Shown piece by piece: positions 2,228-59,771 of a stretch of 64,000 nt of DNA. Made by a program: the position numbers and the translations under genes. The notes under the pieces are model-generated. The model searched no databases, had not been told where the DNA came from, and worked only from the letters and a program-made list of their open reading frames with translations. Location: NCBI GenBank assembly GCA_964016885.1, contig OZ024742.1:258168001-258232000 (forward strand), read 5' to 3'. Origin of the DNA: Eledone cirrhosa (taxonomy: Eukaryota). Every line of letters starts with the position of its first letter. Positions within the stretch are counted from its first letter, which is position 1.

Positions 2228-2366
2228 TCATTATTTCTGATGACAGCATATATATGTGTAGGTATGTATATTCCCTCTGATAGTTTGTAAAATGTTTTAC
2301 ATAGATCTATATGATATACATACCAACACACACATATATATCCTAGAAACGATCGTAAAATGATGA
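2228..2366 (+). ncRNA. Type I hammerhead ribozyme with long stem II, in the 3' region of the Penelope-like remnant
   Basis: TCATTATTT-CTGATGA-(~100-nt stem II, ATATATATGTGT/ACACATATATAT and GGTATGTATAT/ATATACATACC)-GAAA-CGATCG-TA-AAATGATGA; 9-bp stem I and palindromic stem III. Confidence 0.85.
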
Positions 2367-2499
2367 ATTTTTTAATATAAGGAACTGTTTCTTTGTTTTT
2401 ATTCATTATTTTTATTAATTTATATATATACATATATATACATATATATATACACATATATATTTATATACATATATATATACATATATATATATATAG

Positions 2500-3750
2500 T
2501 GTATATAAATGTATTGAACAGAACCTCACACTTTACCATTGTTTTCATGATCTCAGTAAGGCATACAATATTGTTTGTATAAATGCCTTAACGTTGGTCG
2601 TGTCAAACTTTGGATGCTCTCAAAAGTTGGTAATTGTAGTGAAAGCTCTTCATAAAAATATGAAAGCTAGAGTGGACTTTCGCGGCGGAATCTCTGTTAT
2701 TTTGGGGTTAAAATTTTATGTGAATCGCGGAGACATCAATGTATTCGCGGAGACATCAGATATATTTTGCTGCCATAGTCTATCATACTTTCCGATACGA
2801 TAATCAACTGGCGTATGTAAGATATCGTACTACAGGAAATGTCTTTACTAAACGTAAGAGCAAAATGTAATACTCATTAACAAAACACCTACTGTATGCT
2901 AATGAGTGAGATCTGGTAACACATAATGTGCAGATGATTGCAAATGTTAATTTCTGCATTTGATTCCGCATGGCATATCTGATGTGATTATAATTGGAAA
3001 GAAAAAGAAAGTTTTGTGCCAATTTGTACCTGGTCAATTTGTGCAACAACCTAACATATATATGAAAGGTAATCCTAAGGTTGTTGTATCTTTCATGAAA
3101 ATGCAGTGAATATAGATAGAATATATCCCTAAGGAACTGTTTCATGGGGAATTTATTCTGGACAAAGTAAACAGTGTAGGCAAATGAAAATGTTCCAGGA
3201 TGTATTGAAGAAGTACTTGAAGAATGTCTGTATTGATCCCACAAATCTGGAAAACTCACAGCTGATCGCTCTACTTCGCTTTAAAGAATATACTGTAGTG
3301 TGGAAAGCTTTGCGCATAACAGGATAATGCAAGTAAATATCAAGATGAATATAAGAAGAAATAAACAGCTATAAGCATAAAAGCTAGAATAAAAGCTATA
3401 AGAAATTAATGGAAATTTTACTATTTGTAAAATATGTGACAAATTCTTACTATCAGAAACAGGACTTCAAAGTCACATTAGAGCATACATTAGAGGACTT
3501 CCTATTTCTTATGGAAGGTAGTAACCCCTTCACGCTTATCAATGCCACGTCTGCCACAACATCTGCAAATTCCGGACGTCTTATGATCCATGGCAAAGTT
3601 CATCAAGATCAGACAACATAGGCTCTGCAATATGTGGCAATACTAATGGACGGAAAGTATGTCTGGTCAAAAATTCCACATAAAATCCCGTGCTAGAATA
3701 ACATCAAATACACTTAAGTGGTCAACCTTTATATGATCAGATGACAATTA
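2500..3750 (+). pseudogene. Decayed RTE-clade LINE (RT to 3' end)
   Basis: KCIEQNLTLYHCFHDLSKAY..FGCSQKLVIVVKALHKNMKARV (RT); C-terminal C2H2-like CKICDK..GLQSHIRAH near 3425-3490; many stops and frameshifts. Confidence 0.75.
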
Positions 3751-3998
3751 TATATATATATATATATATATATATATATATATATATATATATATATATA
3801 TATATATATATATATATATATATATAAATAAAATGTATAGAAATTGTTGTAGCGAGAAGCTAACAGTATTCCATAGCATATATATATATATATATGTATA
3901 TATATATATATATATATGTATATGTATATATATATATATATATATATATATATATATATATATATGTATATGTATATATATATGTATATATATATATA

Positions 3999-4392
3999 TA
4001 TATTAATAAGAGGAATTCCAACTTTGTCTGATTTACTCGTTTTATTTACAATCCTTTAAAATATATATAATGGTATTATAATGAAATAGTATGATAGAAT
4101 ATTAAATTCTAAGTGTTAATTGAACAAGTACTTTCATGCTTTCGCAATCTTCAGGTTCATGATATGTGGTGACAGTCGAGTTTGCAATTTTCACAGTTGA
4201 AAATTGCAAACTCGACTGTCACCACATATCATGAACCTGAAGATTGCGAAAGCATGAAAGTACTTGTTCAATTAACACTTAGAATTTAATATTCTATCAT
4301 ACTATTTCATTATAATACCATTATATATATTTTAAAGGATTGTAAATAAAACGAGTAAATCAGACAAAGTTGGAATTCCTCTTATTAATATA
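3999..4392. repeat. Perfect palindrome (~195-bp arms, 4-nt loop at 4194-4197) between (TA)n tracts
   Basis: The arms are exact reverse complements by inspection. Confidence 0.95.
4232..4270 (+). ncRNA. Minimal hammerhead ribozyme (mirror copy on - strand at 4121-4159)
   Basis: TGAAC-CTGAAGA-TTGCGAAAGCAT-GAAA-GTAC-TT-GTTCA; stem III palindrome AGTACT. Confidence 0.85.
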
Positions 4393-4739
4393 ATCTTCTA
4401 TACACAATCATACACACCCGTGTATATTTACCTATCTATATCTATATATATATATATATATATATATATATATATATATATATATATATATATATATATA
4501 TATTCATATATAATCTATATTCTTCTGCTAATAAGTGTGACGGTACGCACCCTTTGTTGTGAACATCGAATCTCACATGGGATTTTTTCGAGTTACCACC
4601 ATTTATCCGAACAAAGATATTCGGATATTCGTATAGAGACATCAGGGAATCAAGAAGCTGACCATCGATCCCACATTCCTGAACAAACTTCCGTGGCATG
4701 TCCCGAGGAACGCGGTCATATGTATTTGCAAAGTCGACA

Positions 4740-5170
4740 AAGTATTATATACATCTTTCCAATTATCCTGCGATCACTCGAAGATCAATCGGGTGTGAAT
4801 ATTTGGTGGGGGAGTGCTGGGGCGACAACCACACTCTTCATCAGCAAGCTTAGATTGTCAATCTCCCTGCATCTCTTTGCCAGGAATTTAGCATAGACTT
4901 TACAAGGGAGGCTTAACAAGGAGATCCTTCTACAATTGGAACAATCTCTCTTGTCCCTATTTTTGAAAATTGGGTTAATCACTTCCGATGGCTATTGCTT
5001 AGGTTTATTTCCGGAGATCCAGACTACCGGACTCAGACAAGTCAGCCAGCGAATACCTTCTCTATTTATGTCTTTTAACATCTCGTATGAATGTGAGGAG
5101 CAAATAGACAGACATATATCTTTTCTTTAAAAACCCGACTGCTGCATTTTTGCCGATGGGTATACAGCCA
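4740..5170 (-). pseudogene. RTE-like LINE RT fragment
   Basis: INPIFKNRDKRDCSNCRRISLLSLPCKVYAKFL matches the RT domain-1 pattern PIxKxGDxxxCxNYRxISLL. Confidence 0.75.
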
Positions 5171-58460: not shown

Positions 58461-58518
58461 CTTTATGCTCTGATGAGACCCACTTATAGTGCGGATGAAA
58501 CAATGTTAGCAAGTAAAG
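58461..58518 (+). ncRNA. Hammerhead ribozyme
   Basis: CTTTATGCT-CTGATGA-GACCCACTTATAGTGCGGAT-GAAA-CAATG-TT-AGCAAGTAAAG. Confidence 0.72.
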
Positions 58519-58601
58519 ATATGCATATGCTATAAGCGTTCTTTGTTATTTATTATATTATATAAATATATATATATATTTTTTTAAATGGGGACCTGGC
58601 A

Positions 58602-58652
58602 GGTAATGGGAAAGGTAATGGGAAAGGTAATGGGAAAGGTAATGGGAAAAGT
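58602..58652 (+). repeat. (GGTAATGGGAAA)x4 minisatellite
   Basis: Directly visible. Confidence 0.9.
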
Positions 58653-59141
58653 AACGAAAGGACAAAGAGTCCAATCTCTTCAGTCAACGTCTGGAAATCA
58701 CTACGTTTTCGGTAAATTAATTTGGATAACGCTTATTCTCGCGCATAAGAAAACAGGTAGAGACAAGTTATGTATTTAGGCAATTTGCCCAAATGTAGAG
58801 AGCGCAAGGGCTTAAAAGGGACAAAAATGTAGAAAAGAAAGAAAGAGTAAAAAAAAAGTGAAGGACTGTTCTCCAACGTGCAGACAAGGAAGAGCACTGA
58901 GGCATAGAATTGGAAAGAAGGTAGGATACATGAATCAGGATGGGTGGTGTGATGTCTTCTATATGATAATTTCAAAATGTACCCTCATGGGTAAGTCTTT
59001 AGAATATACATTCACAATATGGTGCGCACAGGACAAAGACAATGGAAAAGAGGGACAGTCCCATCTCCTCAGTCAACCTGTATAAACCACTACCGTTTCG
59101 GTACATTAAGGTCGATAACGTCCATTATATATACACACGAA

Positions 59142-59334
59142 GGGCAGTGGATTGGCCGTATCGGTAGAGAGTCGGACGCCATGCTTTGAAGCAAAATAGT
59201 TAGGGCCCTTTATGATCTGAGTTCAAATCCCGCCGAGGTTAACTTTGCCTTTCATCCTTACGGGCTCGATAAAATAAAGTACCAGTAATACACTGACATA
59301 ATTGCTGGTCTTGTGCCAAAAGTAGAAACAATTA
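59142..59334 (+). mobile_element. SINE family A copy
   Basis: A/B boxes and 3' end. Confidence 0.9.
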
Positions 59335-59535
59335 TATCTACACGCAAACACAAAATTAGTCACACCTACACACACATATTTCTCTCTCACTCCCCCTCTC
59401 TCTCTCTCTCACTATATATATATATATATATATATATATATTTTGAGTTTATGTTGGTTGTATACCAACACCTCAGTATGCAGGCTGGAGCACTCGACGA
59501 AGTGCGCAGGTTGGTTTGGTTACTCCGGAGTAGTG

Positions 59536-59771
59536 TAAAATAAAGTTAAATAAAAGTCAAATGATTAAAATTTAGCTTCGTTTATTACTGCTATATATAT
59601 TTCAGTGACAGCCATCATTGGCTGTGACCTCTTCAGGCAGTTTGAATTAGTAGATACTAATTCAAACTGCCTGAAGGGGTCACAGCCAATGATGGCTGTC
59701 ACTGAAATATATATAGCAGTAATAAACGAAGCTAAATTTTAATCATTTGACTTTTATTTAACTTTATTTTA
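59536..59771. repeat. Palindrome (~117-bp arms, 2-nt loop) with paired hammerheads
   Basis: - strand 59587-59641: ACTGC-CTGAAGA-GGTCACAGCCA..TGGCTGTCACT-GAAA-TATATA-TA-GCAGT; the + strand mirror at 59666-59720 has CTGAAGG. Confidence 0.92.

Follow-up and report, generated by a model that had tools for sequence, protein, structure and literature searches.

A stretch of 64,000 nucleotides from Eledone cirrhosa (assembly GCA_964016885.1, contig OZ024742.1, positions 258,168,001 to 258,232,000 of the forward strand), hereafter the window, carries numerous hammerhead ribozyme motifs that are very probably the 3' ends of many separate Penelope-like insertions beside (TA)n repeats. Seven of the intact motifs belong to autonomous families, whereas three reside in non-coding tandem units likely copied by the same enzymes. 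A previous sequence-only reading had listed eleven intact and six degenerate motifs and had assigned them to non-autonomous mini-elements mobilised by resident Penelope-like elements.

Our type I descriptor requires both core boxes, helices I to III and NUH, lets the base of helix II contain a mismatch or a bulge and, in its final form, demands a self-complementary helix III. It matches 12 complete motifs in the window (core positions 2237+, 4154-, 4237+, 9920+, 32002-, 32681+, 42100-, 45543+, 46073+, 48615+, 56395+ and 59636-), all 12 with a zero-loop self-complementary helix III. Dinucleotide block shuffles of the window (n = 100), a control named beforehand, give a mean of 0.05 matches and a maximum of 1, and none in the strict palindromic form; the motif density is thus far above that of shuffled sequence. 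Nine of the eleven sites read as intact pass this descriptor. The site at 13137(-) passes a second descriptor but is not palindromic, its true helix III comprising 5 bp and a 7-nt loop, and the copy at 58461 fails because its helix II is weakened, although other copies of its family pass. All seven palindromes proposed for helix III are found in the window. Three of the six sites called degenerate are indeed decayed (9344, 41831, 57015), whereas the other three (8791, 53427, 57341) represent variant cores. The density, put at roughly one motif per 4 kb, amounts to 1 per 5.3 kb for complete motifs. Inverted partners at 4154-, 32002-, 42100-, 51635- and 59671+ had been overlooked, as had six remnants of a family denoted H.

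The motifs are genuine sequence features. Their core boxes, NUH and three helices place them among type I hammerheads, a type for which site-specific self-cleavage is predicted. In 14 copies of family C, the hammerhead structure pairs 95% of cells, compared to 36-60% in slid controls, and five pairs are altered on both sides; since the copies are kin to one another, this covariation supports the structure but does not translate into a probability. An Rfam scan of the window returned no hammerhead family among the 150 of 287 matches listed, which are microsatellite-driven and under the gathering score. On the genome, Rfam Hammerhead_1 gave 18 matches with 74 of ~415,000 candidates scored, which is not a census. 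The explanation that chance matches in repetitive, AT-rich DNA account for the motifs would be compatible with the single-strand folding energies of seven motifs, which are no more stable than shuffles (z from -0.55 to 1.28). It has next to no probability in view of the counts in the window and in the genome sample described below, the compensatory changes in family C and the fixed place of the motifs within pseudo-long terminal repeats (pLTRs).

The genome sample comprises sixty 10-kb stretches at round, evenly spaced coordinates (599,800 nt of a 3.0-Gb genome). It contains 51 motifs, 38 of them strict, or 1 per 11.8 kb overall, while ten shuffles contain 0-2; the density of the window is about twice this average. 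The extrapolated genome load is ~255,000 motifs (bootstrap 155,000-370,000; strict form 190,000), a figure that excludes variant cores and truncated motifs. A (TA)n repeat lies at most 300 nt downstream of 94% of the 51 sampled motifs but of only 30% of random points, bearing out the earlier suggestion of Penelope-type hammerheads with palindromic helix III associated with (TA)n. Upstream, (TA)n is found for 50% of 48 motifs. The sample also includes a frequent hammerhead family with a non-palindromic short helix III (8 of the 51 motifs; loci L012, L013, L075, L088, L100). Additional hammerheads, with either a U3-A8 core or a helix III that is long and true, are present in L104:7636, L016, L092 and L103.

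The largest class of motifs is associated with autonomous elements. For each family, the genome was searched by pattern or stretch, and copies whose spacing suggested full length were fetched; these copies are hence chosen, not random. Seven of the eleven intact sites are 3' pLTR ends of families encoding a reverse transcriptase (RT) and a GIY-YIG endonuclease, namely 2237 (family A), 4237 (B), 13182 (F), 45543 (C), 46073 (E), 58470 (J) and 59636 (D), the open reading frame (ORF) being linked in longer genomic copies. As these longer copies continue into the RT and GIY-YIG ORF, the short window copies are 5'-truncated stubs. Long copies are organised as pLTR-ORF-pLTR, often with an inverted truncated copy, and short copies keep the 3' end alone. 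Each family bears its own hammerhead. There are at least 8 related families, with a protein identity of ~30-50% where compared, and a length of 3.2-5.0 kb where the unit is seen; copy numbers range from hundreds to tens of thousands per family. Families A-F, H, J and a family with a U4C core all have an RT followed by GIY-YIG that is joined to their own terminal repeat. Direct pLTR repeats surround the ORF in L114, L115, L121, L206, L207, L236, L265, L267 and L279-282; for families C and E, inverted layouts alone were seen, and no direct-repeat pLTR layout.

Family A is represented by a broken, 5'-truncated ORF (299..1760, +) that retains the C-terminal part of the RT, a CxCx5C linker and GIY-YIG (weak Pfam GIY-YIG match). 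By tblastn it is 58-88% identical to an 834-aa open frame in the 4.6-kb autonomous unit of L121, and among named relatives of the protein the best-matching ones come from Solemya velum and Argonauta hians. The corresponding 3' pLTR hammerhead (2228..2366, +) has (TA)n 63 nt past the cleavage site. The pLTR and 3' region of this family also contain internal direct repeats of ~235 nt (L121, L123, window 2036-2251). Family B (5,579 exact 33-mers in the genome) forms a head-to-head palindrome of two 5'-truncated pLTRs at 4004..4387, with hammerheads at 4232-4270(+) and 4121-4159(-); its 4.2-kb RT and GIY-YIG parents (L114/L115) have Pfam matches to RVT_1 and GIY-YIG. Two copies show a 476-aa frame upstream of the RT frame (L114:4828-6255, L115:4538-5965(-)) with no significant Pfam match. 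Family C is an inverted-repeat insertion (41994..45650) with hammerheads at 45535-45600(+) and 42043-42108(-) and a GIY-YIG ORF remnant at 43480-44299; its parents, in which hammerhead and Penelope-like ORF are linked, are L171-175. A decayed relative of family C, with C3 changed, lies at 56975..57100(-) and is the site listed previously as 57015. Family D (4,494 pattern matches; 4.1-kb parent, L206/207) consists of a head-to-head pLTR palindrome at 59413..59828 with hammerheads at 59587-59641(-) and 59666-59720(+), the latter with A9 changed. Family E (3,013 pattern matches) is a 3' pLTR stub with its hammerhead at 46069..46106(+) and an autonomous parent in L177. Family J (726 matches; parent of 4.7-5.0 kb, L279-282) has the hammerhead with weakened helix II at 58466..58511(+). 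The decayed hammerhead-like motif at 41831..41905(-) has no family match among the loci compared. Window positions 14888-15095(-) hold a copy of another hammerhead family whose core is decayed, with an intact relative at L114:7424.

A second class of motifs, at 9920 (R1), 32681 (R2) and 56395 (R3), is located in non-coding tandem units. Together with a decayed fourth type, R4, these units each carry one type I hammerhead, which is the criterion for retrozymes; the longest ATG frames in R1-R3 units span 43-71 aa. R1 (9608..10170, +) consists of ~1.3 units of a 420-433-nt repeat, with the hammerhead at 9915-9955, and ends at (TA)n. It has 11,369 pattern matches genome-wide, with tandem arrays of up to five, and a second copy at 11366-11677(-) has its hammerhead partly deleted. 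R2 (5,631 pattern matches; tandem spacing mostly 520-545 nt) forms a head-to-head pair at 31871..32930 with units of ~520-545 nt and hammerheads at 32675-32757(+) and 31926-32008(-). R3 (443 pattern matches) lies at 56063..56678(+), with a unit of ~648-675 nt and the hammerhead at 56389-56467. R4 is a decayed copy at 9273..9607(-) of a 483-nt tandem unit (L187) with its motif at 9344-9432. A further tandem hammerhead family has a 311-nt unit (L181:30-700), of which a 75% fragment occurs at window positions 13769-13864.

The retrozymes bear the marks of Penelope insertion: a (TA)n target, two fixed 3' ends within the unit and inverted 5'-truncated partners. For example, 32 of 40 distinct terminal copies of R1 end at +210-219 or +265-282, and 13 of 16 R3 copies end at +289-293 or +393-398; R2 ends are found near +60 and +198. 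Based on these shared marks, it is likely that Penelope-like enzymes move R1, R2 and R3, and in this respect the proposed mobilisation by resident elements is supported, whereas most other motifs are autonomous stubs. We consider it highly unlikely that the tandem units are instead minisatellites of pLTR origin, expanded locally by unequal crossover and not mobilised as RNA. Local amplification of pLTR-derived tandems is discussed in a recent preprint (Li, Clavereau and Pollet 2026, bioRxiv 10.64898/2026.07.22.740005), and sequence variants alternate between adjacent units in L161; yet the copies are dispersed in thousands, mostly single or in arrays of 2-5, and the two fixed 3' ends at (TA)n and the inverted truncated partners mark new insertions.

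The sequence-only reading had gone further, and held nearly all motifs to be dedicated non-autonomous ribozyme mini-elements. Three intact motifs and a decayed one do lie in non-coding tandem units, at least 10 of the 51 sampled motifs belong to R1 or R2, and no ORF was found for a family denoted G. Nevertheless, long copies of 7 of the 11 families run into RT and GIY-YIG ORFs and their 5' ends are highly variable, so that this broader claim is refuted for seven families and very improbable overall; it stands for 3 of the 11 sites (9920, 32681, 56395). That motifs might prove to be termini of autonomous Penelope-like elements had been anticipated, and the finding that 7 of the 11 sites are such termini diminishes the novelty but leaves the identification intact.

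Several observations, in addition to the folding energies given above, count against the assignment of the motifs to Penelope-like insertions copied by a shared machinery. Eight of the 40 R1 ends and three of the 16 R3 ends lie elsewhere, including that of the window's own R3 copy (+216), and head-to-head pairs of R1 are clearly of the short/long kind in only 3 of 6 cases. A comparison of R1-R3 to nine loci with autonomous elements revealed no clear pLTR homology: matches are short or resemble neighbouring insertions, and one 73% match (105 nt, R1) lies in low-complexity sequence. The sequence comparison therefore points to no parent or mobilising enzyme for R1-R3. Ribozyme mutants of PAc, the one Penelope so tested, insert normally in vitro (Frangieh et al. 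2024, PMC11167929), and cleavage was absent in 8 of 9 retrozyme dimers from Xenopus (10.64898/2026.07.22.740005); a processing role for the ribozyme is hence not assured. Finally, family G (48611..48668, +; core 48615; 4,323 genome matches) is placed neither with the autonomous nor with the tandem families. Its copies share more than 1 kb of upstream sequence, and neither short tandems nor a linked ORF were found in head-to-head pairs or 14 further loci, within the upstream DNA examined. Additional family G fragments with decayed cores are located at window positions 13875-14296, 46302-46519 and 48501-48880.

Some motifs deviate from the canonical core. In family F, position 4 is A in 15,495 exact 34-mers, as against 156 with any other base. 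As A4 is the norm of the family, the site at 13137, read as intact, is the rare form (U4) and the site at 57341, read as degenerate, the normal one. The family, whose parent is a 3.26-kb element (L236), shows an extension of helix I, and its helix III could form within a single molecule. It is represented by the hammerhead at 13137..13187(-), by a pLTR stub with a long 3' tail at 57222..57500(+; A4 core at 57348) and by a shorter truncated copy at 55573-55724. A U4C-core hammerhead at 8791..8834(+) has an inverted partner near 7504-7612 and a 4.2-kb Penelope-like parent (L267); its family has C4 in 440 matches and U4 in 36. The head-to-head pair at 51459..53613, related to family A (70-74% identity), has U3-A8 covariant cores near 51635(-) and 53427(+). 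Apparent A6U cores and most U3-A8 matches in L026 were discarded owing to their minisatellite origin. U4C (in a viroid) and U3-A8 cores are already published (PMC4209133, PMC3088659). No U4A family was found in the passages of literature text searched, and an earlier description is possible.

Family H has a U3-A8 core in the full motif and a 3.19-kb parent (L265), and the genome contains 32,073 exact 32-mers from the 3' half of its hammerhead. Of 37 arms in the sample and window, just 2 retain the 5' core box; in most, truncation falls inside helix II, and many show an inversion at that point. In the window, family H is present as a head-to-head pair cut inside helix II (13219..13431) and as remnants at 31696-31769, 34290-34347, 37584-37764, 45764-45956 and 55775-55965. 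All 13 of its 13 head-to-head pairs combine one short (+11-14) with one long (+84-93) 3' end, a strict pairing that was counted for family H alone and, in part, for R1-R3.

Judged by motifs, the families appear to be mostly of the Hydra type, with family B of the Neptune/Nematis type, the two latter clades not being separated. The three Hydra motifs RW[RK], DKT and CxCx5C are all present in families A, D and F, the available piece of family C shows DKT alone, and the short piece of family E shows none of the three. Family B has a Cx2-5CxxC linker, GxKF and DKG, which are Neptune/Nematis motifs. The (TA)n insertion characteristic of the Hydra clade applies to the sampled motifs at the frequency given above. 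Membership in Naiad/Chlamys (N-terminal GIY-YIG, no canonical hammerhead) is ruled out, as the endonuclease is C-terminal and hammerheads are present.

These observations suggest the following mechanism. Biochemistry of the PAc Penelope revealed two internal RT start sites, with both strands cleaved and extended (PMC11167929); for Adineta Penelope elements, tails on one of the inverted pLTRs are described, along with palindromic junctions interpreted as self-priming (Arkhipova et al. 2013, PMC3846280). By analogy, the GIY-YIG domain would cut both strands of AT-rich DNA and the RT would initiate at two internal positions of the RNA, both downstream of the ribozyme, and copy the element's own RNA as well as retrozyme RNA. 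Copying would usually halt early, leaving most insertions as ribozyme-bearing stubs. In head-to-head pairs, each target strand would gain a 3' end, one of them short and the other tailed, and the paired copies may join at short self-complementary spots. Six family D palindromes were picked for recurring spacing: four have their centre precisely on an 8-nt palindrome of the element itself and another on a form longer by 2 nt, the centres spanning two sequence subtypes. A zero-loop helix III can form solely between two ribozymes, and cleavage would therefore need a tandem transcript or two RNAs; for minimal motifs, low and dimer-only cleavage has been reported (PMC4209133). Solitary and head-to-head stubs, with no partner ribozyme on their own strand to complete helix III, would thus not cleave and are probably inert. 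Retrozyme arrays, on the other hand, may be cleaved into single units that might become circles and be copied over more than one turn.

A possible, though tentative, joint reading is that the genome carries the largest hammerhead load yet described (~250,000 complete motifs or some 85 per Mb, compared with 126,247 in the axolotl, whose genome measures 28 Gb; PMC7229834), that the retrozyme footprints are direct evidence that Penelope enzymes move them, and that an abundant U4A family spreads with a monomer-type helix III. About 9,000 hammerheads are reported for Xenopus tropicalis (PMC4209133); since published counts were made with other descriptors, their comparison with ~255,000 is indicative only. 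If true, the spread of U4A implies either a working natural variant of the core or proof that cleavage is dispensable in vivo. The U4A family offers a case in nature for asking whether spread depends on cleavage. The results bear on the role of Penelope hammerheads and on the enzyme moving animal retrozymes. As this genome combines retrozymes with autonomous families that are young and high in copy number, and 3' ends are mapped, cross-mobilisation becomes testable. Many short palindromes are Penelope stubs that could pass for MITEs or microRNA hairpins.

The window also contains other repeats. A broken LINE at 21267-25528(+) encodes an AP endonuclease (E 1.8e-14) and an RT (E 2.3e-29), with a weak MBD match in an upstream frame, and a frame at 19693-20562(-) with a weak zf-RVT match is probably another LINE fragment. 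A dispersed SINE-like repeat of ~190 bp, its copies 82-95% identical and including one tandem pair, occurs at 1-187, 9012-9221, 17970-18409, 25916-26129, 27869-28070, 46511-46727, 50883-51073 and 59141-59340.

Several components of this picture are already published, namely hammerheads in pLTRs, the occurrence of Hydra elements in an octopus and the derivation of retrozymes from Penelope elements. Penelope elements have been proposed as retrozyme helpers (PMC7229834), and the preprint cited above argues for this role from distribution and pLTR trees; its available text includes no mollusc and leaves the mechanism open. For Octopus vulgaris, a repeat annotation reports Penelope-like elements, with ribozymes unmentioned in its main text (PMC13282606), and our literature search found no hammerhead census of an octopus or other cephalopod. 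Nor did we find in print the genome scale, the U4A family or the insertion marks on retrozymes. Hydra-1_Obim of Octopus bimaculoides is listed with a hammerhead and a preference for (TA)n (Craig et al. 2021, PMC8557442). The elements described here share with Hydra-clade elements of that work the C-terminal GIY-YIG, the RWK-like, DKT and CxCx5C motifs, insertion at (TA)n, a 3' hammerhead with a short self-complementary helix III and an inverted 5'-truncated copy; compared to Hydra-1_Obim, we find at least 8 related families with hundreds to tens of thousands of copies each.

Like the metazoan pLTR hammerheads (Cervera and de la Pena 2014, PMC4209133), the motifs are mostly solitary, derive from truncated copies and are varied within one genome. 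Common to both are opposite-strand pairs 100-700 bp apart, a palindromic helix III, U3-A8 covariant cores and a proposed cleavage as dimers. In contrast, the published hammerheads number ~2,000-9,000 per genome, and no U4A family is found in the available text of that study. Like metazoan non-LTR retrozymes (Cervera and de la Pena 2020, PMC7229834; 10.64898/2026.07.22.740005), R1-R4 are non-coding tandems whose units measure a few hundred bases and contain a single type I hammerhead each; low GC and a proposed mobilisation by Penelope elements are further shared traits. The published case for a helper appears to be built on co-occurrence and on pLTR homology in Xenopus; here, the units have no clear pLTR homology to the local autonomous families compared, and the case is built on a two-end tail, the (TA)n target and inverted partners. 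The two putative internal RT starts giving an optional tail, the proposed cutting and extension of both strands at AT-rich DNA and the palindromes at inverted junctions resemble those of PAc Poseidon of Anolis (PMC11167929) and of Adineta Penelope elements (PMC3846280), with the difference that the tails in Eledone cirrhosa are ~55-140 nt long, rather than 30-40 nt, and that the short/long pairing of family H is strict.

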